IMG/VR virus record: IMGVR_UViG_3300003155_000137
Span: 46,629 to 110,628 of that record
DNA: 64,000 nt
From: a virus
Taxonomy: Duplodnaviria; Heunggongvirae; Uroviricota; Caudoviricetes
Direction: 5' to 3' (one strand)
Part shown: piece by piece, positions 25,388 through 60,045 of the stretch
How positions within the stretch are numbered: position 1 is the first letter of the stretch
Layout of the letters: each line of letters begins with the position of its first letter
Position numbers and translations under genes: made by a program
The notes under the pieces: model-generated
Databases searched by the model: none
What the model was told of the DNA's origin: nothing
Seen by the model: the letters and a program-made list of their open reading frames with translations, nothing else

Positions 25388-25396
25388 GACACCAAG

Positions 25397-42162: not shown

Positions 42163-42172
42163 ACTAGAATTG
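42163..42172 (+). promoter_or_regulatory. Conserved motif CCACTAGAATTGATGGTGTATG (late-promoter-like, TAGAAT -10)
   Basis: One of at least 7 copies of (A/C)CTAGAATTG in + strand intergenic regions. Confidence 0.3.
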
Positions 42173-42179
42173 ATGGTGT

Positions 42180-43040
42180 ATGTGTACGGAAGGAGGGTGG
42201 CGTATGGGATGCGTGCTGTCGTCGAACGACGTCGCGGTGGAGCTGTATGTCGTCGCCATGTCCACATCCCTGTCATCCTCCATGCAACCGGTGCTCGGAT
42301 GCAAGGCGACATGGTTCGAGGCGTGGCAACCGTCCCAGGACACGCTGTCCATCACGTTCAGACAGCCGTCGGTGGATGCGCAGTACTCGGTGATATCCAC
42401 TTTGAGAAGGTGGGCACAGGGCAACTCGATGCTGTATCTGAGATACCCGGAGAGGGACATCGACTATCGAGTGGTCATCAGATCCATTCCTCTTCGGAAG
42501 AGATATGATGCGACGATGCTGGATGCAACAGTGACGTTCCAGCCTCTGACGAACAGATTCATCGGATCCACTGTCCCATATGTCTATACCGATATGGCCT
42601 ATGCAATGCTTGGATCGGAGTTCATCACCGATACGGTCGACGATGCCCTCTCGTTCGATACCGAGCAGCAGATCAGGAATCTGTTCACTCAGAATGCTCA
42701 GTTCGATGGATATCGAATCACCTATCTGAACTACCCGAACATCCAGATACAGTTCAGAAGAGTGGATAACGATGGAAGAGAGCAGTGGTCGAGCGTCTAC
42801 ACCGTGAAGATGACTCAGGATCTGGCACAGAGGCTTGCAAGAGGAGACGACATCCAGGCGTATCTGAAGGCGAATCAGTCTGCATCCATTCCGATTCAGA
42901 CTCCAGTGACATCTGGAGGGCTGAAGAAGCCCGATACATCTGGATCGACGATGGTTGGTGGATCAATACCTCCATTCGGCAATCCATACGATGATGGGCC
43001 ATTCGGAAGTCCGTATGGCAACGGACTGACAAGACGATAG
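42180..43040 (+). CDS. Tail structural protein (distal tail/hub-like by position)
   Basis: Position and size only. An ACTAGAATTG motif lies upstream. Confidence 0.3.
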   Translation: MCTEGGWRMGCVLSSNDVAVELYVVAMSTSLSSSMQPVLGCKATWFEAWQPSQDTLSITFRQPSVDAQYSVISTLRRWAQGNSMLYLRYPERDIDYRVVIRSIPLRKRYDATMLDATVTFQPLTNRFIGSTVPYVYTDMAYAMLGSEFITDTVDDALSFDTEQQIRNLFTQNAQFDGYRITYLNYPNIQIQFRRVDNDGREQWSSVYTVKMTQDLAQRLARGDDIQAYLKANQSASIPIQTPVTSGGLKKPDTSGSTMVGGSIPPFGNPYDDGPFGSPYGNGLTRR

Positions 43041-43050
43041 AGGGGTGTGA

Positions 43051-45807
43051 TTGATGTCTCTTGTGTCAGAGGTGTACTACTCCGGCGTTGAGGTGATTAT
43101 CGAGACCATGTCACATGGGGTGATCGATGTCTCAGACGATGTGAGATCGGTCAGTGTCACGAGGAGGCTCGATGGCATATCGACTGCATCGTTCACACTG
43201 GTCAACTACTCGACCTACTCGTCTGGAAGATACAACGGAGTCATCCATGTCGGAGACAGGATGCACATCGCCTTCATCAAGGACTCCCAGAGAATCGATG
43301 CATTCACAGGCAGAGTGTACAAGGTCCCGGTTGTCGCATATAACGAGTCGTCATACACGGTGGAGTGCCAGGATGTCATCGGGGATCTGAAGTACATCTT
43401 CTGGGACCCGTACTCACTCGCCGCCCAGCAGAGATACATGCTGAGCATGGACTCGATATCATCGAAGTCCGCCGAGTATGCCCAGACGAACAATGTCGGG
43501 GACGATAACGGCATAGGCATCATGCTCAACGACTTCCTGACGGCCGAGAACGGCGTATGCCATCTTCCATCGGATGCGGTGAGGATAGCAGCGTTCCCCT
43601 CGACCTCCGAGACGATGCAGGCCATCATCAGGATGACCGTCAGGGGCGACGTCAACACCGACGCCATGCTTGAGTCCGTCTACACCATGCTGTTCGGCGG
43701 ATCGACCATGTTCGTGGACGAGGACGACGTGGACAACGCCATATACGACGCCACCAATGGCGAGGAGGGGAAGGACTCCACTGGATCATCGGGATCATCC
43801 GGGTCGAATGGCCTGTCCTCCCTGAAGGGAACAGCATCCGATATGGCATCCGTTCTGAGAAGACTTCTTGGATCTCCGGCAGTCGATGCGGACAATGACA
43901 CCATCTCTGGAAGAATGAAGGTGAAGATAGACGGAATGGGCCCCGTTAACTTCAAGAGGTGGTCCGACATCGATGGTGCTAAGCACACTGGATGCTATGG
44001 ACTGACAAAGGGTCAGATGAAGGGTCATGCAGAGGTGGATTCTGCGGCACGAGACTGTGATGAGAAGACTCAGAAGAAAGCGATCATCTCGATCTTCAAC
44101 TCGATGCCTGTGAAGAACGTTGCGAAGAACGTCTTCTACTATCTGACTGGCCAGCATCTGTATGATGACGACAGTGGAAAGGAGGACAAGTACTTCTCAA
44201 AGAACGATGCTGGGCAGACCATCTGGGGACTGGAGCTCAATGGAACGAAGTACACAAGCAGGAAGAAGTTCATTGAGAAGATAGCGGATCTCCTTAGCGA
44301 TAAGAGCACATCCGACCTGAACAAGGGAGAGGTTCCAGCATCATCATCAAGAACATCTGATCTGAACAAAGGGGAGGTCCCAACTCCATCATCATCGTCA
44401 AGCACCAAGGCGCAGGGCGAGACGACCGAGAGCAAGGCGTCTCCGGAGGCGCAGGAGAAGTGGAACAGGTTCTCCACCACCTATGCGGCCGGAAGACCGA
44501 TATCGACGTTTGACGGGAATCAGTGCTGGTCGCTCTACTCGGTGTACAACAACATCATGTTCGGATGGGCCGCCGCATCCGGAGGTAATCTTCAGGGGTC
44601 ATGGTCTGAGAACGGATGTCTCGGTAATGGACCGTACTACACCCACGCCATAGAGGCGTATCCGGACGTGAACGCCCAGTATGTGAGGCTTGGGCCGAAC
44701 GACAAGGCTCAGCGCGGCGACGCGGTGTTCTGGTGGTATGGCCCCGGTTCCAACAACATCTATGGGCATGTCGCAATAGTGACCGATGATGATGGAACGA
44801 ACTTCACTGTTCTTGAGCAGGGACAGGGATTCTCCAATCCGAATGTCGTTCATCAGAACACCTACTCAAGATCAGATGGAAAGCTGGCTGGATTCTATAG
44901 ACCGAAGAATCTCGGAGGGGATCTCACTGGCTCATCCTCTGGATCGTCTGGATCGTCCTCTGGATCGGCGGAGGCATTGGCAGAGCAGTATGCCAAGAAC
45001 GAGACGTTCAAGCTGTTCAAGTACGTCATGCAGTTCGACCCACGGCAGACGCTCAACTCGGAGATGCTCGGCCCCGGAGACGGTGTGGACACCGGTCTCG
45101 CATTGGTCAACGACAAGCCGGCATTGGAGTTCGTCAGCACATGCTGCAAGGCATCAATGAGAAGCTACATGTCCATGCCCGACGGAAGGTTCGTCGCGTT
45201 CGTCCCGGACTGGTTCGGATGGATGATGCCGTCCAACGCCAAGGGTTCGACCATAGACATACCGGTCCAGGAGGTCATCAGCTTCAGGACGGACTTCGAC
45301 AAGAGCTCGTACTGCTCCCACTACATGCTTCTGACGAACGAGTCGTTCCCCGATCCCACGGGCATGTTCTCCAACCCGTTGAACCAGACGCTGAGGGCGC
45401 TGATCTCATCCGGCTTCATCTCGCTCCAGTATCAGGGTGACAACCTGATGAAGCTGATGGACATATCATGCACCGGATGCTCCACTCTTGACGATGTGAT
45501 GCAGAGGTGGGGTGTGAACGTCATCACGGAGAGCAACGAGTACATCATCGACCATCAGCTCACCTCGGTCTATGCGCTCTATCAGTTCCTGCGCTATTGG
45601 GCCAACTGCTTCAAGACGCAGGTCCAGATAACGTTCAGACCGGAGATCATCCCCGGACTGAGACTGAGGTTCCCTCATGCCGGGCAGTCGCTGTTCGTGG
45701 AGTCGGTGTCGCATTCATGGAACGCGATGACCGGCGGAACCACATCGGTGACACTTGTCGCCCCGGTGAACTCGAACACGGGACAGGTCGGCGTATCGGG
45801 AGGCTGA
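43051..45807 (+). CDS. Large tail protein with an internal CHAP peptidase domain (tail-associated lysin)
   Basis: The CHAP Cys and His are in GNQCWSLYSVY...GHVAIVTDDDG. Ser/Gly-rich linkers are present. Confidence 0.55.
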   Translation: MMSLVSEVYYSGVEVIIETMSHGVIDVSDDVRSVSVTRRLDGISTASFTLVNYSTYSSGRYNGVIHVGDRMHIAFIKDSQRIDAFTGRVYKVPVVAYNESSYTVECQDVIGDLKYIFWDPYSLAAQQRYMLSMDSISSKSAEYAQTNNVGDDNGIGIMLNDFLTAENGVCHLPSDAVRIAAFPSTSETMQAIIRMTVRGDVNTDAMLESVYTMLFGGSTMFVDEDDVDNAIYDATNGEEGKDSTGSSGSSGSNGLSSLKGTASDMASVLRRLLGSPAVDADNDTISGRMKVKIDGMGPVNFKRWSDIDGAKHTGCYGLTKGQMKGHAEVDSAARDCDEKTQKKAIISIFNSMPVKNVAKNVFYYLTGQHLYDDDSGKEDKYFSKNDAGQTIWGLELNGTKYTSRKKFIEKIADLLSDKSTSDLNKGEVPASSSRTSDLNKGEVPTPSSSSSTKAQGETTESKASPEAQEKWNRFSTTYAAGRPISTFDGNQCWSLYSVYNNIMFGWAAASGGNLQGSWSENGCLGNGPYYTHAIEAYPDVNAQYVRLGPNDKAQRGDAVFWWYGPGSNNIYGHVAIVTDDDGTNFTVLEQGQGFSNPNVVHQNTYSRSDGKLAGFYRPKNLGGDLTGSSSGSSGSSSGSAEALAEQYAKNETFKLFKYVMQFDPRQTLNSEMLGPGDGVDTGLALVNDKPALEFVSTCCKASMRSYMSMPDGRFVAFVPDWFGWMMPSNAKGSTIDIPVQEVISFRTDFDKSSYCSHYMLLTNESFPDPTGMFSNPLNQTLRALISSGFISLQYQGDNLMKLMDISCTGCSTLDDVMQRWGVNVITESNEYIIDHQLTSVYALYQFLRYWANCFKTQVQITFRPEIIPGLRLRFPHAGQSLFVESVSHSWNAMTGGTTSVTLVAPVNSNTGQVGVSGG

Positions 45808-45850
45808 CGCCGGGATACAATGGGAATAGTACGCATCGTGCGCGAATCAC

Positions 45851-48124
45851 ATGATTCGCGTCGTGGTTTTGGGAGGACGAGGGATGCCGAAGAGCGTAGC
45901 CGATTGGTCGAAGCAGATATGCACGGCTCTTAACAATATCGACCCGCAGGTCAGCACGGAGATAGGCGATCCGATCAGGAAGGTCATCGACGCTGTTGCC
46001 TCGGTGGCGAGCGCCGTGGAGATGAACGCCCAGGTCAACCAGAGTTTCTTCGATCTCGACTCCAAGTCGGGTGCCGACCTCGACGCCATAGCGTCATGGC
46101 TTGGATTCGGAAGACGTGATGGCATCAAGGCGGTCGGTGAGGTGAGGTTCTTCGTCGACGAGCCGGCCATCCTGAACATACAGATACCGGCGGGGACGCA
46201 GGTGACCGACGGCAACGTCGTGTTCGAGACGCTCTCGTCCACCGTCCTGGCGCAGTTCGACACGGAGGTCTTCGCAAGGATACAATGCACCACCGTGGGA
46301 ACGTCCGGCAACGTCAACGCCTACGCCATCAATCAGGTGGTCACCACCGTGTCCAACGTCGAGCTCCATGTTGAGAACCGCAACAACACGGTCAACGGCG
46401 TGGACGTCGAATCGGACGCCGAGCTGAGACAGAGAATCAGACAGACATTCCTACGCAACGTGGCGGGAACCGAGGATGCCTATCGCGGGGTCTCGGACAA
46501 GGTGAACGGGACCAACAGGGTGAACGTCATCGGCCCGATCGAGCGCTGGGAGGAGCAGATGGAGGTCGTCGACCTCTCGGAGGACCTCGGAGGCGGGGTC
46601 GGGTTCCAGTCGATGATCCCATGCTCGAAGTACACATGGCCGCGCCAGACCTATCTCGTGAGGGAGCCCGGAACGGACAACGAGATGGTCTACAGGGAGG
46701 GCACCGACTACGTGGTGGACAGTTCCTACGACGAGTCGCATCCGGTCGTGAAGATCCTGATGACCGACGACATGCTGAACCTCGACGGGCTATCAGGCCC
46801 CCAGCTCGACAAGGTCGGGGAGACGCTCGGCCTCCCGAGATACGGCGGGACCCCGGCATACGGAACGGTGTCGTTCGGGTTCGATATAGCGCAGAAGTCC
46901 AACTACACGATCAAGAAGGGCGCTCGCGTCCGCACGCCGTCGGGGGACATCCTGGTGACCCAGCACGACACCACCATCTATTCCGGCTCGCTGGGAAGCT
47001 CCGACGTCGACGTGCTGTCCCAGGAGTGCAAGCCGATATCGGTTCCGAATGGCACCCATCTCACCTACATCGACAGGACCGGGTTCGACGTCATGGTCGT
47101 CGAGGCGATCACCGGCGGCGAGCGCGCGTGGGACGACGCGACCTACCGCGGGAAGATCAGGGAGCGCTTCTACGAGCGCGTCTCCATATCGCCAGGGGAC
47201 TTCCTGTTCTTCAAGCACGAGTACTGCTCGAACGTCAGCAGGAACGAACCTGCGGAGAACCCTCCGAAGGTCAACAAGGTGGACGTGTTCGTCGACGGCA
47301 TCGACGTGCAGGAGATACGCGAGGTGTCGCAGATACAGTCGGTCACGCTGAACGACGATCCTGACGACATGTGGTACGTCGGGAACTTCTACTACGAGGA
47401 CGGCACCCACCCGGTCAAGGGAACGAAGATGGAGGTCCTCGGGTACAACCCGGTCGTATCCATCCCCGAGTCGGTCAACATCAACGGAGGGACCTACTAC
47501 CTCGGCAAGCACTACAGGCTGGTGAGGAACCAGACGCTCACCGCCGGAAGCACGAGGGAGATAGCGGGGATGGCGTGGGTTCCGGGGCAGGAGATGCCGT
47601 CGGATGGCAGCTTCACCGAGATGAGATATGACTACAACAGGACGGTCATGGTCACGGATGCACTACTGGACACGAACAGGCAGATATGCACCGACGTGCT
47701 GTGCCACGAGGCGCACAGGGTCGGCCTCACCATCAACGTGATAGTCCAGTCGGTTCTGGGTCAGTCGGATTCCACGCTGCTGGAGTCCATCAACCACCAC
47801 CTCGACGACTGGGCCAAGAGCACCCCGTTCGGCCAGTGGATTCAGAGATCCGACCTGGAGATGACGATTCGTCAGGCCATAGGTGTCGACGCATGCCGCA
47901 TAGCAACCCCGGACGACACATGGAGGACCATCAACCTCGGTGACGACGTAGGCCAGAAGGTCAAAAGTGGAATCCAGACGCACGAGACGTTCCGCCACTA
48001 TCTGGACGAGCAGCACGACGAGGACTTCAGGCTGTGGGACTCCATGCTTCCGACCATCTACAAGGTGAACATCGTGAGGACGGCCGCCAACACCTACGAC
48101 CCATCGTATCGACCAGAGCCGTGA
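45851..48124 (+). CDS. Baseplate-J-like / tail fibre-associated protein
   Basis: The N-terminal region (GDPIRKVIDAVASVASAV...DLDAIASWLGFGRRDGIKAVGEVRF) resembles the Baseplate_J family. Confidence 0.35.
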   Translation: MIRVVVLGGRGMPKSVADWSKQICTALNNIDPQVSTEIGDPIRKVIDAVASVASAVEMNAQVNQSFFDLDSKSGADLDAIASWLGFGRRDGIKAVGEVRFFVDEPAILNIQIPAGTQVTDGNVVFETLSSTVLAQFDTEVFARIQCTTVGTSGNVNAYAINQVVTTVSNVELHVENRNNTVNGVDVESDAELRQRIRQTFLRNVAGTEDAYRGVSDKVNGTNRVNVIGPIERWEEQMEVVDLSEDLGGGVGFQSMIPCSKYTWPRQTYLVREPGTDNEMVYREGTDYVVDSSYDESHPVVKILMTDDMLNLDGLSGPQLDKVGETLGLPRYGGTPAYGTVSFGFDIAQKSNYTIKKGARVRTPSGDILVTQHDTTIYSGSLGSSDVDVLSQECKPISVPNGTHLTYIDRTGFDVMVVEAITGGERAWDDATYRGKIRERFYERVSISPGDFLFFKHEYCSNVSRNEPAENPPKVNKVDVFVDGIDVQEIREVSQIQSVTLNDDPDDMWYVGNFYYEDGTHPVKGTKMEVLGYNPVVSIPESVNINGGTYYLGKHYRLVRNQTLTAGSTREIAGMAWVPGQEMPSDGSFTEMRYDYNRTVMVTDALLDTNRQICTDVLCHEAHRVGLTINVIVQSVLGQSDSTLLESINHHLDDWAKSTPFGQWIQRSDLEMTIRQAIGVDACRIATPDDTWRTINLGDDVGQKVKSGIQTHETFRHYLDEQHDEDFRLWDSMLPTIYKVNIVRTAANTYDPSYRPEP

Positions 48125-48244
48125 TCGGTGTATGATCGCCGGTGGTGCCGCTGGTTTCGGTGTCCACCGGCGTTTCGTTTTCCGAATCGGGATATCATTA
48201 GTCATGTCAACTGGACATATCAGGACAAGGAGGCGTCATCGGAC

Positions 48245-48544
48245 ATGTCGGAGGAGATCGATGGTGGGAAGTTCGTGTGCCCGTACTGCAAGGGCGAGGT
48301 GGATGCCAAGGACGTCGTCGAGTGCGACGAGTGTCTGAACGACATATGCGTGGGGTGCGCGACCATATGCGAGACGTGCGGGGAGCCGCTTTGCCCGTGC
48401 TGCGCGGACATCGCGGCCATCTGCGACGAGTGCGGCGTGGCGAAGGGGTTCTACGACCTGATGACGTGCCCTCTGTGTGAGCGTTGCATATGCCTCGACT
48501 GCATGTACGACCACCTGACCGGAAGGCACGCGGCCAAGCCGTGA
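48245..48544 (+). CDS. Cys-rich multi-zinc-ribbon protein
   Basis: About 20 Cys in 99 aa, in CxxC pairs. Confidence 0.3.
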   Translation: MSEEIDGGKFVCPYCKGEVDAKDVVECDECLNDICVGCATICETCGEPLCPCCADIAAICDECGVAKGFYDLMTCPLCERCICLDCMYDHLTGRHAAKP

Positions 48545-48629
48545 TGACGCCGACGGCGTGTCACTGCTTTCGTGCGTGATACAGTTGAATACGTCAAACG
48601 GACACATGGACACGAAAGGACAATCGGAC

Positions 48630-49169
48630 ATGGCTGGGAACAACGACTACGTCATCTCGTCGGGCGTCACCGTCACGATGAACGACGGCGAGGTCAGGAT
48701 GATTCATTGCGTGATGGGGAACGAGTCCATCAAGATCGGGGTCGACTCCAACGGGTATGTTGACAGTGATTCGTTCGGTGAGTACTGGTCGGTATCCATC
48801 GACGACCTTCCCGATCAGCTCGACAGGATCGCCGACCAAATCCGCAAGGTCAACGAGTTCCGCCACCGCTACGACAAGGCGGTCGCCAAGGTCGCCGGTG
48901 AGATCTCCAAGGCCATGCGTGACGCCGACCACGACGCCGACCCCGCCATCGTGGATGATGGCGGCATCTGCGACGAGTCCGAGACGTGGTATTGTTCGTT
49001 CTGCCGCAAGGAGGTTCCCGACGACGACATGACCCAGTGCGAGGAATGCGGCATCGACGTCTGCCGGAACTGCATCGCCGAATGCTTCTGCGGCGACAAG
49101 GTCTGCCCCGACTGTCTCACCAAGAACAGGCGGCTGGCCGATGATTCCGTGAAGGGCGGCGACGAGTGA
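48630..49169 (+). CDS. Protein with a C-terminal Cys-rich zinc-ribbon module (paralogous to the 48245 module)
   Basis: CDESETWYCSFC...CEECGIDVCRNCIAECFCGDKVCPDC. Confidence 0.3.
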   Translation: MAGNNDYVISSGVTVTMNDGEVRMIHCVMGNESIKIGVDSNGYVDSDSFGEYWSVSIDDLPDQLDRIADQIRKVNEFRHRYDKAVAKVAGEISKAMRDADHDADPAIVDDGGICDESETWYCSFCRKEVPDDDMTQCEECGIDVCRNCIAECFCGDKVCPDCLTKNRRLADDSVKGGDE

Positions 49170-49654
49170 TGGAGGAACGCATCCTCACCATGACCATCCT
49201 CCACGGCCTCCCGGCGAGCGGCAAGAGCACTTGGGCGCGCGACCACGTCGACGACCGCACCATCATCGTGAACGTCGACGGAATCCGCCGCTCGATGACC
49301 GGCACGTTGTCGAGGTGGTACTCCGTCGGGAACCGCAACGAGAGGGAGACGATCGCCATCACGGCCGCCCACACCATCGCCGACACGGCGTTGCGCAATC
49401 ATATCGGCGTCATCATCGACATGCAGAACCTCAACGGCAGGACGGTGGCCCAGTGGACTCGCATCGCCGCAAGACATCACGCCAACGTCACCCTTGTCAT
49501 GTTCGACGCGCCGCTCAATGACATCCTCACGAGGAACGCCGAACGCCCCGAGGATGACCGCGTGCCCGAGGGCTACATCCGTCGTCAGGCGGAGCGGTAC
49601 GGTCTCGGCAGGTCCCTCGTGTGCGGCGAGGTGGTTCGCAGGTTCCCGGCCTAG
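49166..49654 (+). CDS. P-loop kinase resembling the polynucleotide kinase (Pnk) kinase domain
   Basis: ILHGLPASGKSTWARDHV...NVDGIRRSM compared with T4 Pnk IGCPGSGKSTWARE...NRDDYRQSIM. No phosphatase domain is present. Confidence 0.45.
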   Translation: MMEERILTMTILHGLPASGKSTWARDHVDDRTIIVNVDGIRRSMTGTLSRWYSVGNRNERETIAITAAHTIADTALRNHIGVIIDMQNLNGRTVAQWTRIAARHHANVTLVMFDAPLNDILTRNAERPEDDRVPEGYIRRQAERYGLGRSLVCGEVVRRFPA

Positions 49655-49735
49655 ACCCATTCTGCCCATAGGATTCGCGACCCCTCCCATCGGTGGTATC
49701 ATGGTATTTGAACCGACAACCGATGGGAGGGGGCA

Positions 49736-50520: not shown

Positions 50521-50548
50521 GCTACGATGTAATATCAGGTGATGGCTT

Positions 50549-51169: not shown

Positions 51170-51179
51170 ACTAGAATTG
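51170..51179 (+). promoter_or_regulatory. Motif copy CATACTAGAATTGTATATGG
   Basis: Intergenic, upstream of 51234. Confidence 0.3.
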
Positions 51180-52429: not shown

Positions 52430-52542
52430 GGTACGACCTCGCTGTTTCGTGCTCCGCCCTTCAGGACGGGGAGGATGTCAAGTGGAATGCATATTGCTCG
52501 TCCGATGACCTTCTGAGCGCCGTACCCGGCCATGCCCGGAAA

Positions 52543-52552
52543 ACTAGAATTG
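52543..52552 (+). promoter_or_regulatory. Motif copy AAACTAGAATTGAATGTACGG, followed by a GGGGCGGG...CCCCGCCC hairpin
   Basis: Upstream of the endolysin gene. Confidence 0.3.
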
Positions 52553-52611
52553 AATGTACGGGGCGGGACGCTCTGGACTCCCCGCCCTTCATTCTTTCAT
52601 GAAAGGTATGG

Positions 52612-53889
52612 ATGGGAATCATGACAATGCAGGGAATTGACATATCGAGCTGGCAGGCTGGGATCAACCTGTCTGTGGTCCCCTGTGACTTCGCAATCGT
52701 GAAGGCGACGCAGGGCACCAACTACACCAATCCTGACTGCGTTCGTGCAGTGGAGCAGTGTCTCTCGCTGAACAAGCCGTTCGGCGTCTACCATTACGTG
52801 TCCGGCGGCAACGCAGTCGCTGAGGCGAACTTCTTCGTCGACTCCATACTCAACTGGGTCGGCAAGGGCATCCTCGTCGTGGACTGGGAGAGCAACCAGA
52901 ACTCCGCGTGGGGCAACACCGGCTATCTTGACACCCTGGTCAAGCAGATCATCAAGAGAACCGGCGTCAAGCCGTGGATCTATGCGTCATCTGCTGTGTT
53001 CCCTTGGATGGTCGCCAGGAACAACGACTGCGGTACATGGGTGGCCCAGTACGCCTCGATGAACGCCACCGGCTATCAGGACACCCCGTGGAACGAGGGG
53101 GCATATGCATGCACTTGCCGCCAGTATTCCTCGAACGGTCGTCTGAACGGATGGAACGGCGGTCTGGATATCAACAAGTTCTATGGCGATGTCAACGCAT
53201 GGAACGCCTATGCCGGCAATGGCGCTACAGCCGACCCGAAGCCGTCCGCCCCGTCCGATCCACTTGCGGGATACACGGACGAGCAGCTTGCGGATGCTGT
53301 GCTTCGTGGCGAATACGGCGACGATCCCCAGAGGAAGGCCGCTCTCGGCTCCCGCTACGACGCCGTTCAGGCCATCGTGAACCAGCGCCTCGGCGTGGCC
53401 CAGTCCACCAACTCCGGCGGCATCAAGTACACGGTCAAGTCCGGCGACACCCTGTCCGCCATTGCTTCTCGCTTCGGCGTCTCGGTCAACGACATCACTG
53501 GCTACTCCTCCGGCAATCCGAACCTGATCTACCAGGGCGAGGTCTTGACCATCGGTGGCGGTGCCAAGGCTCCGGCCACCACCACGAAGACCTACACCGT
53601 GCAGTCCGGCGACACCCTCTCCGGCATCGCGGCTAAGTTCGGTGTCTCGACATCTCAGATTTCTGGATATCGTTCGGGCAATCCGAACGTCATCTACCCC
53701 GGAGAGGTTCTGACCATCGGAGGCGGTTCGTCGGCACCCGCGCAGACCACTCGCACCTACACGGTGAAGGCCGGAGACAACCTCTCCACCATCGCCCAGA
53801 GGCTCGGGACCACGGTGAATGCCCTGGTGTCCAGGAACGGAATCGCCAACCCGAACCTCATCTATCCGGGTCAGGTACTCAAGTACTGA
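52612..53889 (+). CDS. Endolysin: GH25 muramidase with three C-terminal LysM repeats
   Basis: GH25 motifs QGIDISSWQ...[12 protein letters not shown]...YHYV are present, followed by three YTV(K/Q)(S/A)GD(T/N)LS.IA repeats. Confidence 0.85.
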
Positions 53890-53910
53890 CCCTCTGCGGA
53901 TGACAGGAAG

Positions 53911-53979
53911 GCCCCTCTGGCGGACTTTCGTGGCGACTACGGTAGCTGGTACCCATACGCCGTGAAAGCGCTCCAGAGG
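53911..53979. terminator. Bidirectional terminator-like inverted repeat between the convergent endolysin and reverse-strand genes
   Basis: GGCCCCTCTGG ... CCAGAGGGGCC. Confidence 0.3.
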
Positions 53980-54029
53980 GGCCTCCAATTGATTCTCAGG
54001 TCAGTTGCAGTCGAATCGGGGCCTCGGAC

Positions 54030-54929
54030 TCACATGGCCGTGATGGGGAACTCCTCGGGGCCGAACTCGCTAAGGATGTCGTTCCAGCGGAAGTACGCCT
54101 TACCGTTGATCCTGCCGCCTCCGGGCAGGGACCAGTCGCCGTCCGAGTCCAGATAGAGGCGGGTCCCGGTGGCCGTCTGGTAATCGGTGCACATCTCAGT
54201 CGGCTGCATGAAATCGCTCGGCTTGTGCCCGTCGGGGGCATTGTTCAGGCGCAGGATGACGAACCAGTCCATGCCGCCGCCATCGGTGCCGTCGATGCTC
54301 CTGATGACCCACCTGTCCGAGATCACGCCGACACGACCCTGAATGAGATCGCCCTCCAGAACCACGAGCCGGCCGTCCTCCTCCGAGATGACGCCGGCGG
54401 AGACGGCGGGGCCGCCACTACGCTTCCACACGGCGATGTCGCCCGGCTCGGCCTCGGCGAGCGTCACCATGCGGATGGGGGCCGGACGATTGGTCTTGGC
54501 GGATGAGCCGTTGGAGGATGTGATCCTGCGGATGACGCGCCACGGGTTCTCCAGCTTATGGTTGCGGTTGGTCCTGGTTTTGCGGTTCCATGCATAGCCG
54601 ATGCCCTGGGCGTAGATGTCGCCGTCGGAGTCGATGGAGCGGATGCGGTAGAGATCGTATCCGCCATCGGAGTTGCCGACCTGGAAGTAGTCGTCAACGG
54701 TGGCCAGCATCGGGTCGATCTCCTCGTAGCCGTCCGGAACCGGGACGGTCACCACAAGGCTCTTGGCGATCTCGGAGATGGCGGAGCGGATGTCGCCCTC
54801 GCCGTCCTTGATGCGGATGAGCAAACCGTCATCAGCCGCCGCATTGATCTCGACACCGTGTCCCTTGGGCCTGATGATGGCGTCGCCATCGTCGAAGGAG
54901 ATGGTGTTGTTCTTGTCTGTCATTTTCAT
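54030..54929 (-). CDS. Hypothetical protein, the only substantial reverse-strand gene in the window
   Basis: A clean 299-aa ORF convergent with the endolysin and with a normal composition. Confidence 0.5.
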   Translation of the reverse strand: MKMTDKNNTISFDDGDAIIRPKGHGVEINAAADDGLLIRIKDGEGDIRSAISEIAKSLVVTVPVPDGYEEIDPMLATVDDYFQVGNSDGGYDLYRIRSIDSDGDIYAQGIGYAWNRKTRTNRNHKLENPWRVIRRITSSNGSSAKTNRPAPIRMVTLAEAEPGDIAVWKRSGGPAVSAGVISEEDGRLVVLEGDLIQGRVGVISDRWVIRSIDGTDGGGMDWFVILRLNNAPDGHKPSDFMQPTEMCTDYQTATGTRLYLDSDGDWSLPGGGRINGKAYFRWNDILSEFGPEEFPITAM

Positions 54930-55129
54930 TTTCCTTTTCTGCCCATGTGTCCCTGCCGGATTCGGTTGCGAACCCGACGCCTTCGATTATGCCCCGATCC
55001 GCCGCATACGCAAAATCCACGGCGAGTCGCGGGCGTTTCCAACGAAACGCCGCCGACTTTACATGTCCATACCGTTTTGGTACAATATGAACTGTAATCG
55101 GAAACGGGACAACGGACACACTCCGGTAG

Positions 55130-55137
55130 TAGAATTG
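55130..55137 (+). promoter_or_regulatory. Motif copy GTAGAATTGACTGGTGTATGGGG
   Basis: Upstream of 55236; it shares the extended GGTGTATG tail with the 42163 copy. Confidence 0.3.
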
Positions 55138-55235
55138 ACTGGTGTATGGGGCCGTGGCCCCAGGACATGGAACAACGAGATGGGACAGGGTGCCCCCCCC
55201 CATCGGACTACTCGGCTGGAAGGCTGGTTTGAATC

Positions 55236-55868
55236 ATGGGCGAGAATCTCACCAACGACGCGCTCAGGCTGCTTTGGGACGTCATCCGTGACGCCGACGT
55301 GGCTTTGGACAACGTGACGGTCGACGTGTACGACCGCGACACGGGTACGGACGGCTTCTACGGGTTCGGCGACGACATGCCGGAGGACGACGCCGTGACC
55401 CTCGACGTCCCCTACGACGAGCTCAAGGCCGTCGTCTCGCTTGACGCGGACGCCGACTACGGCCTGATGCCCGAGACCGCCACCGTCGATGTGGAGCTCC
55501 CTGCGGTCGACATCACCTACGGCGACCCAGACCGGACCCTCAAGGCAGTCGGACGCATCCTGGACCAGGACTGGATGTACGACTCCGCCAATGTCAGAAT
55601 CTACATCTACGACCAGGACTCGGGCCGCGACGCCTACTTCGACTACGGCGAGACGATCGTCGACAGCGACGTCATGGAGCTGTACGACTGGGCCGAGGAC
55701 GAGGACGGCGACGAGGACAGGTTCAAGGTGGTCACGGCCAACGGCGATGTGACCGTGGACTACGGCGATGCGGAGGATGCGCTCCAGCGCGTCGTGAACC
55801 TCGACGACTACGAGCTGCCCGGCAACATGCTGGTGTCCGTCGACCTCGGACGCATCACCGTGATGTGA
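55236..55868 (+). CDS. Hyper-acidic protein with internal repeats (VDVYDRDTGTDGFYGFGDD / IYIYDQDSGRDAYFDYGET)
   Basis: It is preceded by the TAGAATTG motif and a C9-C10 tract. Confidence 0.4.
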   Translation: MGENLTNDALRLLWDVIRDADVALDNVTVDVYDRDTGTDGFYGFGDDMPEDDAVTLDVPYDELKAVVSLDADADYGLMPETATVDVELPAVDITYGDPDRTLKAVGRILDQDWMYDSANVRIYIYDQDSGRDAYFDYGETIVDSDVMELYDWAEDEDGDEDRFKVVTANGDVTVDYGDAEDALQRVVNLDDYELPGNMLVSVDLGRITVM

Positions 55869-56074
55869 GAGACCACCCGCAAGGAAAGGAATCGATTATG
55901 AAGGCAACCAACATCGACACGGACGAGGTGGTGGACGTCGTTCCGTTCGGCCTGCTCTCGCCGGACCTGTCCAGCCTCTACATGGTGGACGCCAACACCG
56001 GCTACCCGATGGAGGAGCTGTAGTCCAAGCCACAGGCTTCGCTCCGCACTCGCGGAGGTAATCCATCCAATCGA

Positions 56075-56278
56075 ATGAAAGGAAGCGACTCCGACATGTA
56101 CGGACAGGAAGCCAAGGAGATGCTGATCGACTACATCAGGAACTCGGGGTTTGACCCTGACGACTGGGACATCGATCAGGCAACCGACATGATTATGGAC
56201 AGGTGCGGCGACATGCGTCCCGAGGATGTTCCGGAGGACATCGTGGCCGATGTGCTGATGGCGACCGACCTGTCCTGA
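56075..56278 (+). CDS. Small acidic protein
   Basis: ORF. Confidence 0.25.
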   Translation: MKGSDSDMYGQEAKEMLIDYIRNSGFDPDDWDIDQATDMIMDRCGDMRPEDVPEDIVADVLMATDLS

Positions 56279-56303
56279 GCGACGAGGGTTCGAGGAGAAG
56301 GAT

Positions 56304-56411
56304 ATGGCCGTAGGCGATCCGTGGAGCAACAGCGGAGCGAGGAGCGGTGCGATGCAGGTGTTCCACGAATCGCCTACTGCCATGTCATACGCGATTCCCA
56401 ATGTCGGTTAG
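56304..56411 (+). CDS. Small ORF (35 aa), paralogue A of a duplicated ~75-nt segment
   Basis: MAVGDPWSNSGARSGAMQVF... Confidence 0.25.
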   Translation: MAVGDPWSNSGARSGAMQVFHESPTAMSYAIPNVG

Positions 56412-56573
56412 CTGATAATTGAGCTTATCGGATTCCCACATGCTATCGCGGAGTCAATGTCCTTTTCGGTTAACATGATGTAATCCATCTTATGAGAAAA
56501 GCAGAACCATTCTGCACGCCTTGCCGCAGATGTCACACAACAGATTGTCCTCAATGTCATCAGTCATGAACGC

Positions 56574-56583
56574 CACTATAATT
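56574..56583 (+). promoter_or_regulatory. Motif copy CCACTATAATTGATGGTGCGTACATG
   Basis: A TATAAT variant, about 27-nt similar to the 42163 copy. Confidence 0.3.
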
Positions 56584-56651
56584 GATGGTGCGTACATGAT
56601 TCACTGTCTGCTCGTCGCAGATCACTCGTCCTTTAGGGGGTGATGCACAGA

Positions 56652-56774
56652 ATGGCCATAGGCGACCCTTGGAACAACAACGGAACGAAGAACGGTGCGA
56701 TGCAGGTGTTCATACCTTCGTCGGCACCCATCATCTCGTCCATATCGATAGACTCGCTCATGAGCCATTTCTAG
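56652..56774 (+). CDS. Small ORF (40 aa), paralogue B
   Basis: MAIGDPWNNNGTKNGAMQVF...; about 85% nucleotide identity to 56304-56380. Confidence 0.25.
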   Translation: MAIGDPWNNNGTKNGAMQVFIPSSAPIISSISIDSLMSHF

Positions 56775-56837
56775 CCGCCGTTCGACGACCTCGTATTCGA
56801 CAAGTCGGACTCGTCGCATATCAGGCATCTCGTCGAA

Positions 56838-58055
56838 GTGCTGTGCGGCGAGTCCGGCATCGGACAGATACTCGCATGGTCGGTCAGGGACTGGCTCAAC
56901 GGCGGCGTCTACACTGCATGGCTCGGATTCGTGGACAGGCTCTTCGCCAGCATCTACGGACTCCCGAGGATATACGAGGAGACCACGAAGTTCAACCCAT
57001 CCGACGGTGCCCTCACCATCGAGGAGGTGAACGAGGCCCTCGTCAAGGAGAGTTGGTACAAGGAGCGGTTCGTCCTGCTCATGAAGGCCCTGTGCTCCGG
57101 AGGAACGGTGAGAGGGTTCAGGTTCGCGTGCCAGTCCATCTGCTTCTGCGACTGCGACATCTACGAGACGTGGAGATACAAGAAGCAGGACTTCCAGGTC
57201 GGAAGGATGGGCTACACCCTCTACAACGAGGTCGTGATATGCCCGTACTCCAAGGGCGTGACGGAGCGGCAGAAGGAGCTTCTGCTCAGGGTGCTCGACA
57301 GGCTCAAGCCGGCCGACGTCATCGTCACCATCGACATGAACGGCCTTGAGGCGTTCACCCACAGGTCGATGAGGGCCGTCACCGCCTCGTCCACATACTT
57401 CGAGATACAGCGCACCGTCATGAACACGGTGGACAACTCCAAGCTCCCTCCGGCCTCGGAGATATTCACGGACGGTCAGGCATACGGGTATGACGCCTAC
57501 CTCCGGCTCGACACGGGCGAGACGACCGAGGTCAGGAAGGCGATCCAGAACAGGACGCAGGAGTACACCGAGTACTACGTGTCCGACAAGAGCTCCACCG
57601 CGCAGGTCGCCGACGTGACGTACACCATAGAGAACGCCAACGACGAGGTCGTTTCCGAGGAGGACTGGACTGAGCGCGAGTCCACGGTGAGATGGAGCTC
57701 GTGGGTGAGGTTCACCATCGTAGACGCCCCCGACAACTATCCCGGAGGGAAGTACGGCAGGACGCCGATGCGCGCCCCTGCGGTGAACCGCGACGGAACG
57801 GACTACATCTTCCCATACGAGTCGCAGGATGCGTATGAGAGGATGAAGGGGGCGCAGGTCATAGCGGACGGCGGAGAGGTCATGGGACACCATTACAGGG
57901 TCAGGCTGTCGGTGTCGACCACGACGACGCGGTACACCCCGGACATGTCGTTGGTCACGGTGAACGACGCATCGAACAACATGCAGGTGCTCCCGGAGGT
58001 CGAACCGAAGGAATTAAACGCATACAGCCGCGTCACGCTTCGGAACATGCAGTAG
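56838..58055 (+). CDS. Hypothetical protein, 405 aa (GTG start)
   Basis: 405-aa ORF in the late region; no motif-based assignment. Confidence 0.3.
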   Translation: MLCGESGIGQILAWSVRDWLNGGVYTAWLGFVDRLFASIYGLPRIYEETTKFNPSDGALTIEEVNEALVKESWYKERFVLLMKALCSGGTVRGFRFACQSICFCDCDIYETWRYKKQDFQVGRMGYTLYNEVVICPYSKGVTERQKELLLRVLDRLKPADVIVTIDMNGLEAFTHRSMRAVTASSTYFEIQRTVMNTVDNSKLPPASEIFTDGQAYGYDAYLRLDTGETTEVRKAIQNRTQEYTEYYVSDKSSTAQVADVTYTIENANDEVVSEEDWTERESTVRWSSWVRFTIVDAPDNYPGGKYGRTPMRAPAVNRDGTDYIFPYESQDAYERMKGAQVIADGGEVMGHHYRVRLSVSTTTTRYTPDMSLVTVNDASNNMQVLPEVEPKELNAYSRVTLRNMQ

Positions 58056-58118
58056 AATCGTTTATGTAACGAAAATCGGAAACGCCTCCATCCCCCGCTC
58101 CCCACGGGGGGGGCTGGA

Positions 58119-58427
58119 ATGGAGGTAATGGTGGCAAAATTCACCGTTGAGACACAGGATGATTTCGTTGACGGCATTCTCGACGACACCATCGTCGATG
58201 CGCTCGACATGTACCACGAGAGACTTGAGGACGGCGGCGACCCCGACGACATCATGTACGACGCCGTCGCCGACGCCATCGATGACAAGTTCATCTATTG
58301 GCAGGACATGGCTTCGGCCGTCATCGAGTACGGCAAGATCAGTGATGCGTTCCAGATGGTCTACGAGGACCTTTTCGCCGACGTCATGAACGGCCTGACC
58401 GAGCGTGCCGATGAAAACGCCGGCTAA
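58119..58427 (+). CDS. Hyper-acidic small protein
   Basis: It is preceded by a GC hairpin with a G8 tract. Confidence 0.35.
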   Translation: MEVMVAKFTVETQDDFVDGILDDTIVDALDMYHERLEDGGDPDDIMYDAVADAIDDKFIYWQDMASAVIEYGKISDAFQMVYEDLFADVMNGLTERADENAG

Positions 58428-58479
58428 TTGGGCGTTCGATGCCACCGATGACGGCGAGGACTGGTGACCACGTCGGCGT

Positions 58480-58489
58480 GCTAGAATAT
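58480..58489 (+). promoter_or_regulatory. Motif variant GTGCTAGAATATACTCC
   Basis: Upstream of 58584. Confidence 0.25.
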
Positions 58490-58583
58490 ACTCCGTAGGC
58501 AATATGCAACACACATGCCTCCGTTTTCCTCCGTGAGTGGACGACTCACGGGGGGGGGGCAGGACGGAAAGCGGAGGTATGAT

Positions 58584-59057
58584 ATGGCACGACGCATCGC
58601 CAGAGGCAACGGCGACAGGTTCGGCTTCGTCGACTGGTATTCGTCGGTCGAGGTGGCGGACGATGCGAGAGTCGAGGGCATGGAGGTCGACGGCATCCTC
58701 ATCGAGCTCGTCCGGCCCGACCCCGACATCTTCGGCGGGTTCGATCCCGAATACGAGGCCGAGGAGGGCTACGACTTCTACGAGATGGTTGTGTCAGCTC
58801 CCTACACCTACAACGGCTGGGACATCGCCCGGAAGGTCAACTCCATTGACGGGGTCATCGCGGAAAGCGAGTTCGAGTCGGTGAACTGGGCCAGCGACGA
58901 CGAGGGCGCGTACATCCACGTCGTGGTCTCCAACGGAAGCGACTTCACCGGCACAGAGGACGAAGTCGACGCCGACATGAAGGACGACGGCTTCACCGAC
59001 GACGACATCGTGTCCATCAACGGGGCTCCGTGGCCGTTCGACGGATACCGTCGTTGA
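58584..59057 (+). CDS. Hyper-acidic protein (start at MARRIARG; the upstream part of the 58515 ORF is leader)
   Basis: The RBS GGAGG and a hairpin with a G10 tract lie upstream. Confidence 0.35.
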   Translation: MARRIARGNGDRFGFVDWYSSVEVADDARVEGMEVDGILIELVRPDPDIFGGFDPEYEAEEGYDFYEMVVSAPYTYNGWDIARKVNSIDGVIAESEFESVNWASDDEGAYIHVVVSNGSDFTGTEDEVDADMKDDGFTDDDIVSINGAPWPFDGYRR

Positions 59058-59191
59058 CCACGCCGGTGCCGGTCGTGGAGCGGAAACCGTGGTAAACTGT
59101 TCCATGATGGAGAAAATCACTTGAGACATGCGGCCTCCGCCCCGGCTCTCTCCATTCGACGGGGGGAGGCATGGGCGGAGGCTAATGCATC

Positions 59192-59845
59192 ATGGCGATT
59201 GACGAATACACCGGCGACGCGCTGAAGACAATCAGCTATCTCATCGACGAGACCGACATGGAGACCGACCAGATCGTGGTGAGCTTCTACAACCACGCGA
59301 ATGACAAGTCGTTTGAAGTCGGACAAGGTGACGGGCTGGTCACGGAGAACGATGTGATGTCGCTGTCCGATGGTGAACCCTCCGAGGACGGGCTTGACTC
59401 CACGGTGAACCCGGCGCTCGTCGATGCGTTCAACGCCATCCTCTCCCTCGACTACTCATACGACTTCGAGCAGTGCGAGGACATGCTTGGCGCGTCCGAC
59501 ATCGGCGTCATGTTCCTGGTTCCGTCCGCGAACATCTCTGGACGCACGCCTGAACGGTCGCTTGACGCCGTCATGTCCGTGATAAACGATCCGAACATCG
59601 ACACCGACGAGATCGGCGTCACCCTGTATGACTGGGATGGGTACAACTACGATTTCCGGTACGGCGATCGCGTGACCGACGAGGATGTCGAGGCGATGTA
59701 CGACATGGAGTCCCCGGAGATGACCGACGGGGACTATACGGTCGATTCGCTCCGCGAGATGATTCAGGAGGTCGTGGACCTCGAAACCCCGTATGCGCCT
59801 CTCGGCTACTCCGTCACGGTTGACCTCAACGACCTCTCGTTCTGA
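59192..59845 (+). CDS. Hyper-acidic protein sharing a YDWDGYNYDFRYGD motif with 55236
   Basis: A GCCTCCGCCCC...GGGGGGAGGC hairpin lies upstream. Confidence 0.35.
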   Translation: MAIDEYTGDALKTISYLIDETDMETDQIVVSFYNHANDKSFEVGQGDGLVTENDVMSLSDGEPSEDGLDSTVNPALVDAFNAILSLDYSYDFEQCEDMLGASDIGVMFLVPSANISGRTPERSLDAVMSVINDPNIDTDEIGVTLYDWDGYNYDFRYGDRVTDEDVEAMYDMESPEMTDGDYTVDSLREMIQEVVDLETPYAPLGYSVTVDLNDLSF

Positions 59846-60035
59846 TTGACGTGCCTCAAGGCGGGGCCGGAACGCGGTTGCGCGAACCGTATCAACGCAC
59901 TCTAATGCGATTAGGCCATCCTCCGAGGAGGAAATGGAAGCGGGAGCCGGATTCCCTGTGCATCATGGGGGCCGGCTCCTGCGCTTTTATGTATCCCGTT
60001 ACCTTCTGAAGACCGGCAACGGGGGCGTCTCCGAA

Positions 60036-60045
60036 ACTAGAATTG
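60036..60045 (+). promoter_or_regulatory. Motif copy AAACTAGAATTGTATTCAGAG
   Basis: Upstream of homing endonuclease copy 4. Confidence 0.3.

Follow-up and report, generated by a model that had tools for sequence, protein, structure and literature searches.

A short motif recurs in intergenic gaps ahead of tail, baseplate and lysis genes of a phage that we take to be uncultured, actinobacterial and myovirus-like. The question is whether the motif is a promoter and, if so, which polymerase would read it. The motif was examined in a window of 64 kb, which lies on a chicken-gut contig of 137 kb. The intergenic status of each copy was taken from codon-usage gene calls across the window. In the context R-C-TAGAAT-n-G, with either TAGAAT or TATAAT as the hexamer, nine + strand copies are present between 38.1 and 60.0 kb.

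38101–38110, + strand: GATAGAATGG, 38 nt ahead of gene 38147, which is tail assembly chaperone-like and heads the tape-measure operon; a weak -35-like CTGACG lies at a spacer of 16.
42163–42172, + strand: ACTAGAATTG, ahead of gene 42204-43040 (the ATG at 42204 is the likely start, behind the Shine-Dalgarno sequence GAAGGAGG) and gene 43051-45807 (a virion protein with a peptidase-like domain).
51170–51179, + strand: ACTAGAATTG, ahead of a gp25-like baseplate gene, with 51234 or 51243 as its called start.
52543–52552, + strand: ACTAGAATTG, ahead of the endolysin gene 52612/52627-53889, with GH25, CW_7 and LysM domains.
55128–55137, + strand: AGTAGAATTG; gene 55236 starts 100 nt downstream.
56575–56584, + strand: ACTATAATTG, with TATAAT as the variant hexamer; a DUF7297 baseplate-module gene has its true start (ATG 56652) 69 nt downstream.
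58051–58060, + strand: AGTAGAATCG, which overlaps the DUF7297 stop codon; next comes a 98-aa gene (58131).
58480–58489, + strand: GCTAGAATAT, ahead of the 157-aa gene at 58584.
60036–60045, + strand: ACTAGAATTG; the endonuclease gene 60098-61060 (TnsA-like/zinc-finger) follows 54 nt downstream.

A first-pass annotation had listed seven of these copies as probably a phage promoter, all of them intergenic and on the + strand, 30-260 nt before start codons. All nine are indeed intergenic, and the distance was roughly right: once the starts are corrected, the end of the hexamer lies 33-100 nt from the start codon. The hexamer is present in all seven copies of that list, which missed those at 38103 and 58053; its 58480 copy (GCTAGAATATA) has the hexamer without the TTG tail. 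The commonest form of the TAGAAT word is ACTAGAATTG. A search of the window for MCTAGAATTGW with at most one mismatch returned six matches, all on the + strand (42163, 51170, 52543, 55128, 56575, and 60036), against 1.15 expected in shuffles, and none of 100 shuffles reached six. TAGAATTG occurs five times in the window against 0.53 expected. On the + strand of the window, every position-weight-matrix match scoring 10 bits or more is intergenic, and a further pair of copies lies just beyond the window, at window-equivalent positions 67393 and 67405. A second promoter-like site, TTTACA-17-TACAAT, was seen at 55058-55086, 44 nt upstream of the 55128 copy. Two weaker candidates were also found.

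32741–32750, + strand: GATATAATTG(G); the TnpB gene 32772 starts 23 nt downstream.
49695–49704, + strand: GGTATCATGG, ahead of gene 49775; the R-n-TAnnnT-n-G frame is kept and the hexamer is non-consensus.

The candidate at 32741 is probably part of an IS element and not one of the phage promoters. ACTAGAAACGCC, described at first as a variant of the motif flanking an IS remnant, does occur on either side of an IS200/IS605-type unit (25121 and 26873). It was rejected as a promoter variant: T(-7) is missing, the word extends to GTTC(T)ACTAGAAACGCC as a 16/17-nt direct repeat around the insertion, and its first copy holds the stop codon of gene 24712-25125.

One reading of these copies is a chance or compositional effect, in which AT-rich hexamers accumulate between genes because a GC-rich genome is AT-richer there. 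The bare count in the window agrees with it, as TAGAAT occurs 10 times on both strands against 8.9 in shuffles and is not above them. The signal, however, is placement and not count. In four related high-GC phage loci (the window, L003, L009, and L010; 101.6 kb in total, 15% intergenic), TAGAAT occurs 28 times counting both strands, and 24 of these are intergenic (binomial p = 3e-16). Each of the 24 is oriented toward the next gene; in L003, two of them lie on the - strand and precede genes of that strand. No occurrence is intergenic and antisense, and four are coding. Sixty permutations of TAGAAT with the same composition gave means of 3.0 intergenic-sense, 1.2 intergenic-antisense, and 6.7 coding occurrences. 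Among all TAnnnT hexamers, the runner-up has 9 intergenic-sense copies. Equal frequency in coding regions and on the minus strand, which the first-pass annotation had named as evidence against a promoter, is not what these counts show.

Relatives whose proteins are 50-90% identical also keep copies at orthologous positions, although the flanking sequence has diverged. TAGAAT stands before the orthologs of the 157-aa gene in L009 (5650) and L003 (12714), directly before the orthologs of gene 61032 in L003 (17102) and L010/L083 (4414/4363), and the copy before the 98-aa gene is conserved in the same way. The gap corresponding to the 55128 copy holds TAGAAT in L003 (8628) and TATAAT in L009 (3037). 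The 58053 copy belongs to a subfamily, TAGAAT-CGTTnnTGTAAC, with members in L003 (11751, 12714, 13294) and L009 (5650), and is validated by these paralogous and orthologous copies. In L083 (66% GC), only two TAGAAT occur in 16 kb; both are in the 5% that is intergenic and at the orthologous places, and one directly follows a terminator-like hairpin. Four-locus placement, permutation controls, and the L083 copies refute the compositional reading, to which we assign virtually no probability. The earlier description of the motif as a conserved cis element is borne out by its outlying placement and by the orthologous copies in diverged relatives. In relatives with 42-50% GC, TAGAAT counts are high on both strands and uninformative. 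No TAGAAT enrichment was found in distant high-GC relatives, including cluster C mycobacteriophages; therefore, the motif is specific to this clade or its host. Neither a megablast of 20 kb against GenBank phages nor a single-protein scan of IMG/VR returned a match.

The profile of the 24 sites gives the consensus R(-14) C(-13) T A G A A T n G(-5). The hexamer has the form TAnnnT, with A(-11) and T(-7) invariant in 9/9 window copies and 24/24 four-locus copies, and every copy in these sets is TAGAAT except one TATAAT. Position -13 is C or G in 22/24 sites. The stretch from -45 to -15 is without information, and a weak T-G-n-A is seen at +1 to +4. TTG at a spacer of 16-19 was found in 0/24 sites and the best TTGACA match was no better than in shuffles, in agreement with the first report of no conserved -35. 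The profile contains no UP-like AT-rich tract. The TG extension of the classical extended -10 (-15/-14) is likewise absent, with R and C/G at -14/-13 and an uninformative -15. A generic scan for sigma-70 promoters and terminators gave no excess over shuffles, and an Rfam search returned three tRNAs only. No constant RNA structure was found beside the motif; upstream and downstream folds are heterogeneous, with z-scores mostly from -1.6 to +1.3, and strong leader hairpins occur only in the 58053/58482 subfamily. A promoter for a single-subunit phage RNA polymerase was considered and rejected, with only about 10 positions conserved and no such polymerase seen.

An asymmetric, orientation-locked intergenic repeat of about 10-11 nt might also be an operator for a phage DNA-binding regulator, similar to the stoperators of cluster A mycobacteriophages or the start-associated sequence of cluster K. 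Yet conservation falls exactly on a -10 hexamer and G(-5), and no sense-orientation copies lie inside genes except one that overlaps a stop codon. A start-associated element is ruled out by the distance from hexamer to start, which is 33-100 nt in the window and reaches about 390 nt (389) in L003. Neither a repressor nor an integrase is evident in 83 kb of the contig, and there is no sign of a temperate lifestyle. We regard an operator as a very remote prospect.

The conserved positions match a published promoter class. In C. diphtheriae, 98.9% of transcription start sites have the sigma-A -10 TAgaaT, the spacer from -10 to start site is 6-9 nt, and the -35 is poorly conserved and commoner with a non-optimal -10 (PMC5784534). 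The extended -10 of C. glutamicum is GNTANANTNG, and the engineered up-mutant PdapA-L1 is AGGTAGAATTG (PMC3917453). The -35 is dispensable in the extended/consensus -10 subclass and poorly conserved in Corynebacterium (PMC5784534, PMC3917453), and SigA of M. smegmatis prefers TANNNT as the -10 (PMC6448022). The core, which had been likened from the start to an actinobacterial -10, fits both the C. diphtheriae and the C. glutamicum forms. The phage sites follow the corynebacterial frame G/R(-14) n TAnAnT n G(-5), with a purine at -14 in 23/24 and G at -5 in 20/24. C at -13 lies outside the published sigma-A consensus, as do the recurrent downstream blocks TGATGGTG and CGTTnnTGTAAC.

Judged from the DNA sequence, the copies are likely to be -35-independent consensus -10 promoters, read by the host sigma-A RNA polymerase and heading transcription units for tail, baseplate, and lysis proteins. 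All sequence-level predictions of the promoter reading hold. What is observed is the sequence, placement, strand, and conservation of the motif, the absence of a -35, and the match to the published sigma-A consensus, and from these we infer the polymerase, start sites, and timing. By the known workings of the sigma-70 family, host RNA polymerase with the primary sigma factor (sigma-A) would contact the near-consensus hexamer through sigma region 2, and sigma region 1.2 would read the conserved G two bases past it; a -35 contact would be unnecessary. Transcription is predicted to start about 6-9 nt downstream of the hexamer, often near G-T-A, which would give leaders of 25-90 nt with a Shine-Dalgarno sequence at their end. 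The phage encodes a WhiB-like protein (12037-12321), and its host is therefore likely to be an actinobacterium. Its endolysin comes closest to endolysins from phages of Arthrobacter, Bifidobacterium, and Microbacterium. Genomes were also scanned for the TnpB gene as a clue to the host; this produced nothing beyond a 31% match in a Firmicute MAG and is uninformative. Among the Pfam or PHROG hits in 83 kb of the 137-kb contig, where many ORFs are without a family, there is neither a phage RNA polymerase nor a sigma factor.

The motif heads most tail, baseplate, and lysis gene groups of the phage and its close relatives. The genes downstream (tail chaperone, baseplate, endolysin, and sheath operon) are of classes usually expressed late. 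Some neighbourhoods bear marks of rearrangement, and recombination has to be weighed as the source of the repeats: promoter cassettes may have been shuffled among intergenic sites, or may mark insertion points of mobile genes as PeSL do, with similarity due to copying. The 42163 and 56575 copies were first thought to share about 27 nt; the common block, CCACTA(G/T)AATTGATGGTG, is 18 nt long and 17/18 identical, after which the two diverge. The tail GGTGTATG shared by 42163 and 55130 had been described correctly. The 56575 copy lies inside an insertion of about 290 nt bounded by the duplicated 5' end of the DUF7297 gene. A terminator-like hairpin (59966-59981) lies upstream of the 60036 copy. 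The relatives have TAGAAT directly before the 61032 ortholog; therefore, the endonuclease gene appears to have been inserted between the 60036 promoter and its ancestral target, the sheath operon. In addition, small genes of the window, L003, and L009 are in several cases preceded by TAGAAT-CGTTnnTGTAAC with a CA-rich leader and a hairpin. Against copying as the general source, most copies share only the core of about 10 nt and differ in both flanks, and the downstream stem-loops are inconsistent, with mostly unremarkable z-scores. Nor would recombination alone explain why orientation is strict and why the hexamer is identical to the sigma-A -10. It is compatible with promoter function and no true alternative to it, and as the explanation of the motif we consider it highly unlikely.

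The distribution of the host-type promoters along the genome raises a further point. The TAGAAT class is confined to the structural module: there is no copy in the 47 kb to the left, and the class is present in 0/24 intergenic gaps on the left and 9/15 on the right (p = 2e-5). This hints at extra regulation, since a perfect host-type -10 should be active as soon as infection begins. This right-hand confinement fits either a temporal switch or a simple operon layout. Left of 38 kb, promoter-like sites of another architecture occur.

7577–7604, + strand: TTGCGT-16-TACACT, promoter-like and with a -35; the tRNA cluster follows.
10867–10895: similar -35-containing promoter-like site.
30193–30220: similar -35-containing promoter-like site.
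30946–30974: similar -35-containing promoter-like site.

The promoters could therefore form a late class under phage control, read by a sigma-A polymerase remodelled during infection or by a -10-only phage sigma factor. Under remodelling, a phage factor would displace or occupy sigma region 4 (an AsiA- or gp39-like factor or the WhiB-like protein being candidates), so that -35-dependent promoters are shut off and -35-less consensus -10 promoters take over. The partition of four TTGNNN-16/17-TAnnnT sites left of 38 kb and nine TAGAAT-class sites to the right (Fisher p = 0.0014) favours such a class, although these are 4 versus 9 sites in one genome and may merely mirror operon layout. The early region of the relative L013 keeps a -35-containing site at the orthologous place and is without the TAGAAT class; a sheath search returned no protein on the L013 contig. 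The position of the WhiB-like gene in the replication module and the conservation outside canonical sigma contacts (C at -13 and the TGATGGTG block) point the same way. There is also precedent, in that P23-45 gp39 and T4 AsiA inhibit -10/-35 promoters and spare extended -10 promoters, the class to which the P23-45 middle and late promoters belong (PMC7403470; PMC3950348). On the other side, no homolog of a sigma-4-binding factor or of a phage sigma factor was identified in 83 kb of the 137-kb contig. The greater frequency of -35 boxes with non-optimal -10 elements in C. diphtheriae could give the same two-class appearance without a switch, and in L003 TAGAAT also stands before small accessory genes on both strands, which suggests general-purpose rather than late-specific use. 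A phage-controlled late class therefore seems unlikely.

A specific form of this idea combines one host polymerase with two architectures, -35-containing TTGYGT-16/17-TAnnnT for replication and early genes and -35-less RC-TAGAAT-nG for tail, baseplate, and lysis genes, switched by a sigma-region-4 factor. WhiB-family proteins bind sigma-A region 4, and the WhiB-like protein is for this reason the candidate. We think this quite unlikely; if true, it would be the first sigma-appropriation-type temporal switch described in an actinobacterial phage.

The motif is best read as an ordinary strong -10 box for the main sigma factor of the host and not as a new kind of element. It is conceptually ordinary in that phages routinely carry host-type promoters, and an exception would arise if the early/late -35 split were a real specificity switch. 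Its use is to mark transcription units reliably across a clade of large, uncultured phages of actinobacteria, made up of L003, L009, L010/L083/L084, and the chicken-gut contig. Several gene starts are corrected by it, and it reveals mobile-gene insertions, such as that of endonuclease gene 60098, which separates a conserved promoter from the sheath operon. As a corynebacterial-type sigma-A consensus, TAGAAT with G at -5 may hint at the host. The copies are also candidate compact, strong, -35-independent promoters for trial in actinobacterial expression systems.

Among known systems, the PeSL (promoter-early stem-loop) cassettes of T4-type phages, reportedly described by Arbiol et al. in 2010, resemble the present case as repeated promoter-bearing intergenic modules around small genes in plastic regions. 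The signs of cassette copying at 42163/56575 and the stable leader hairpins of one subfamily are points of likeness. The stem-loop is not constant here, however, and the genes served are mainly conserved structural ones. Stoperators of cluster A differ as repressor sites of unrelated sequence. The late promoters of T4, TATAAATA, are read by the phage sigma factor gp55 with gp33 and the sliding clamp. They too are a lone -10-like box with no -35 ahead of late structural genes, but they have another sequence and require a phage sigma factor, none of which was seen here in 83 kb, whereas the motif of this phage equals a host sigma-A consensus. Further parallels are the extended -10 middle and late promoters of Thermus phage P23-45 (gp39/gp76) and the extended -10 promoters spared by T4 AsiA. 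The likeness lies in structural-gene promoters that use the host primary-sigma polymerase and have no -35 box, with a -35-containing class elsewhere in the genome (PMC7403470). P23-45 promoters carry a TG extension and the present sites do not, and with no gp39- or AsiA-like factor found in 83 kb of the contig, the switch is hypothetical here. Mycobacteriophages are similar in having host-type, SigA-like promoters in intergenic gaps of actinophage genomes. TAGAAT has been noted as a strong -10 in these phages, and the predicted SigA-like promoter PL6 of cluster O is TGTCAA-17-TAGAAT (PMC4351075); cluster O promoters differ in having a -35 box and number 8-9 per genome. In Corynebacterium sigma-A promoters, C is not preferred at -13 as it is in the phage sites, which have no TG at -15/-14. 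The likeness to the corynebacterial consensus is one by analogy. Compared with host promoter sets, the phage hexamer is far more uniform and is restricted to one genome module. The likeness extends to an identical TAGAAT hexamer, a purine or G at -14, G two bases past the hexamer, and a -35 that is weak or missing where the -10 is optimal, and it can be seen directly by setting PdapA-L1, AGGTAGAATTG, against the phage motif, ACTAGAATTG (PMC3917453).

The window comes from a chicken-gut metagenome and covers approximately record positions 21,079-85,078 of the 137,478-bp contig ERZ922862 k127_79594. Its GC content is about 59%, and a codon-usage gene call placed nearly all genes on the + strand. 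No close relative of the window was found among GenBank phages. The baseplate J protein shares 32% identity with its counterparts in cluster C mycobacteriophage myoviruses, and the nearest neighbours of the endolysin are from Arthrobacter, Bifidobacterium, and Microbacterium phages. The WhiB-like gene points to an actinobacterium as the host. The main features are as follows.

Left part: replication genes for DNA polymerase III alpha subunit (with intein), 5'-3' exonuclease, RecA-like protein, WhiB-like protein, DnaB, and primase; a terminase-like gene with intein
Right part, from about 38 kb: tail chaperone, tape-measure-like, and baseplate proteins, endolysin (GH25 + CW_7 + LysM), tail sheath
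12037-12321: WhiB-like transcription factor gene in the replication module (Pfam E = 8e-9)
7577-7604, 10867-10895, 30193-30220, 30946-30974: -35-containing promoter-like sites, TTGYGT(TTT)-16/17-TAnnnT
8045-8375: three clustered tRNA genes (Ala-TGC, Thr-TGT, Gly-TCC), with the -35-containing promoter-like site 7577 upstream
25116-26884: IS200/IS605-type unit, with a truncated Y1 TnpA on the - strand and TnpB at 25427-26689
32772-33992 (region 32650-33992): second TnpB gene, preceded by the tRNA-like fragment GGTTCGAGTCC and by TATAATTGG

Selfish elements are abundant (493-5244, 21593-22609, 15396-16406, 22759-23589, and 60098-61060). Two genes, for DNA polymerase III alpha and the terminase-like protein, contain inteins, and one endonuclease family has three free-standing genes, with a TnsA-like N-terminal domain and, in two of the three, a C2H2 zinc finger.

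The recurrent intergenic motif seen in the first-pass annotation is real. MCTAGAATTGW with at most one mismatch matched the window six times, always on the + strand, versus 1.15 expected, and TAGAATTG matched five times versus 0.53; copy 58480 retains the hexamer only. A position weight matrix built on the copies detected two more + strand sites (38103 and 58053) as well as two weaker sites (32743 and 49697), and its + strand matches of at least 10 bits are intergenic without exception. When the window was joined to flanking pieces of the same contig (83.5 kb), + strand TAGAAT was confined to window positions 38103-67405 and absent from the 47 kb on the left side. After correction of gene starts (42204, 56652, 58131, and 58584), the hexamer ends 33-100 nt before the start codon, and the starts have Shine-Dalgarno sequences. 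ACTAGAAACGCC, previously taken for a motif variant, proved to belong to a 16/17-nt direct repeat, GTTC(T)ACTAGAAACGCC, flanking the IS200/IS605-type unit; it was rejected as a family member, since it has no T at the last hexamer position and, in its first copy, contains the stop codon of gene 24712-25125.

The raw TAGAAT count in the window is not unusual (10 versus 8.9 in shuffles); the signal lies in placement. Relatives were retrieved via the DUF7297 baseplate-module protein, and TAGAAT was common to three high-GC loci, L003 (61% GC, 64% protein identity), L009 (59%, 68%), and L010 (67%, 51%). Across these and the window (101.6 kb, 15% intergenic, either strand), 24 of 28 occurrences are intergenic (binomial p = 3e-16). 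All 24 face the next gene, including two L003 copies on the - strand that precede - strand genes. Sixty permutations of the same six letters gave means of 3.0 intergenic-sense, 1.2 intergenic-antisense, and 6.7 coding copies, and among the 64 TAnnnT hexamers the runner-up to TAGAAT had 9 intergenic-sense copies. In L083, from a 66% GC lineage (16.3 kb), TAGAAT occurs exactly twice, both times in the 5% that is intergenic. Chance is excluded by the intergenic placement, the permutation controls, and the L083 copies. Distant high-GC relatives, including cluster C mycobacteriophages, showed no TAGAAT enrichment; hence, the uniform hexamer is a trait of the clade or its host.

The hexamer keeps its position in relatives where the neighbouring sequence has diverged. 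In alignments of orthologous gaps, it precedes the 157-aa gene in the window, L009, and L003 (A1), and the ortholog of gene 61032 in L003 and L010/L083 (A2). Its position before the 98-aa gene is also conserved, but L009 has TAAGAT (A4). In the gap before the 55236 ortholog, L003 has TAGAAT and L009 TATAAT; the automatic alignment (A3) did not bring the three boxes into register. The TnsA-like/zinc-finger endonuclease gene 60098-61060 sits between the conserved promoter candidate 60036 and gene 61032, and appears to have been inserted behind a pre-existing promoter, which accounts for the earlier observation of a copy in front of a homing endonuclease.

The 24 intergenic sites from the four loci were aligned on the hexamer. 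Position -14 is a purine in 23 sites, -13 is C or G in 22, and the second base 3' of the hexamer is G in 20; a weak T-G-n-A follows about 7 bases downstream. Positions -45 to -15 carry zero information, none of the 24 sites has TTG at the -35 position (spacer 16-19), and the best upstream TTGACA match was no better than in shuffled upstream sequence. Folding of the flanks gave no structure common to all copies. The most informative positions of the motif are those that, in sigma-70-family polymerases, sigma regions 2 and 1.2 read in single-stranded form. Neither an operator nor a start-associated sequence fits the variable start-codon distance and the exact -10 anatomy.

In Corynebacterium diphtheriae dRNA-seq, the sigma-A -10 motif TAgaaT was found at 98.9% of transcription start sites, with a spacer of 6-9 nt and mostly purine starts; the -35 is poorly conserved and commoner where the -10 is sub-optimal (PMC5784534). 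C. glutamicum has a statistical extended -10 GNTANANTNG and a functional optimum TGnTATAATnG, and its PdapA-L1 up-mutant reads AGGTAGAATTG (PMC3917453). The preferred SigA -10 of M. smegmatis is TANNNT (PMC6448022), and in cluster O mycobacteriophages TAGAAT has been rated a strong SigA-like -10 (PMC4351075). Judged by these consensus matches, R-C-TAGAAT-n-G is essentially an optimal actinobacterial sigma-A extended -10 box. The copies are probably -35-independent promoters for host sigma-A RNA polymerase, which would read them without a -35, and would head most tail, baseplate, and lysis transcription units. Placement, anatomy, conservation, and the sigma-A -10 match support the earlier promoter interpretation as far as sequence goes; the start sites, promoter activity, and timing of expression are inferences from it. 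The proposed unit starts are:

38147
42204
about 51240
endolysin gene
55236
DUF7297 gene
58131
58584
sheath operon

Three observations hint at a recombination-cassette role for the repeated block, a role that would add to promoter function and not replace it. Copies 42163 and 56574, reported to share about 27 nt, share 17 of 18 nt; one subfamily has a common leader and hairpin; and the 56575 copy lies within a ~290-nt insertion that has a duplicated gene 5' end at its boundary. The first 57 nt of the DUF7297 gene recur as a ~80% copy at window 56304-56358, and the ~290 nt from there to the real start contain a small - strand ORF as well as the promoter copy; 56304-56651 resembles a cassette whose insertion duplicated the DUF7297 5' end. 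A similar duplicated-flank pattern surrounds an endonuclease gene at 15324-16564.

The DUF7297 gene (56652-58055) is interrupted at 56772-56774 by an in-frame TAG, which lies within a 12-nt insertion (TAGCCGCCGTTC). A homolog with 99% identity (P0001, 463 aa) lacks the insertion, and the ENA and Logan assemblies of run SRR789046 both carry it. Possible explanations are a defective variant, an assembly artefact, and a recoding site. Several small genes have GC-rich leader hairpins (window 58084-58125 and 58516-58561; L003 11785-11828, 12290-12338, and 12746-12802; L009 5226-5274). In most, the 5' arm GCCUCC pairs with the Shine-Dalgarno GGAGG; inner stems vary among paralogs, and z-scores reach -3 to -4. 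They may serve translational masking or mRNA stabilisation. At locus L007, a 770-aa gene has TATAAT (3254-3259; window-equivalent -6254) in a palindromic context 6 nt upstream of its start codon, and its transcript may be leaderless.

All four -35-containing sites lie left of 38 kb and all TAGAAT-class sites right of it (4 versus 9 sites, Fisher p = 0.0014); the motif occurs in 0/24 intergenic gaps on the left and 9/15 on the right (p = 2e-5). The early region of another relative, L013, has retained TTGTGT-17-TATAGT in the orthologous position and contains no TAGAAT-class site. A phage factor that switched off -35 recognition late in infection would be expected to produce this split; P23-45 gp39 and T4 AsiA act in this way and spare extended -10 promoters (PMC7403470). 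The WhiB-like protein is a candidate sigma-A modulator. However, the same split is expected without a switch if -35 boxes accompany weak -10 boxes, as in C. diphtheriae (PMC5784534); in L003, small accessory genes of both strands are likewise preceded by TAGAAT sites; and no sigma factor, polymerase, or sigma-4-binding homolog was found in 83 kb of the 137,478-bp contig. We consider such a switch unlikely. The early/late split in promoter architecture is the one thread worth following, and the motif can aid annotation of this uncultured phage clade. A host-type consensus -10 promoter carried by a phage is a well-known type of element, of which the present case is a new instance.
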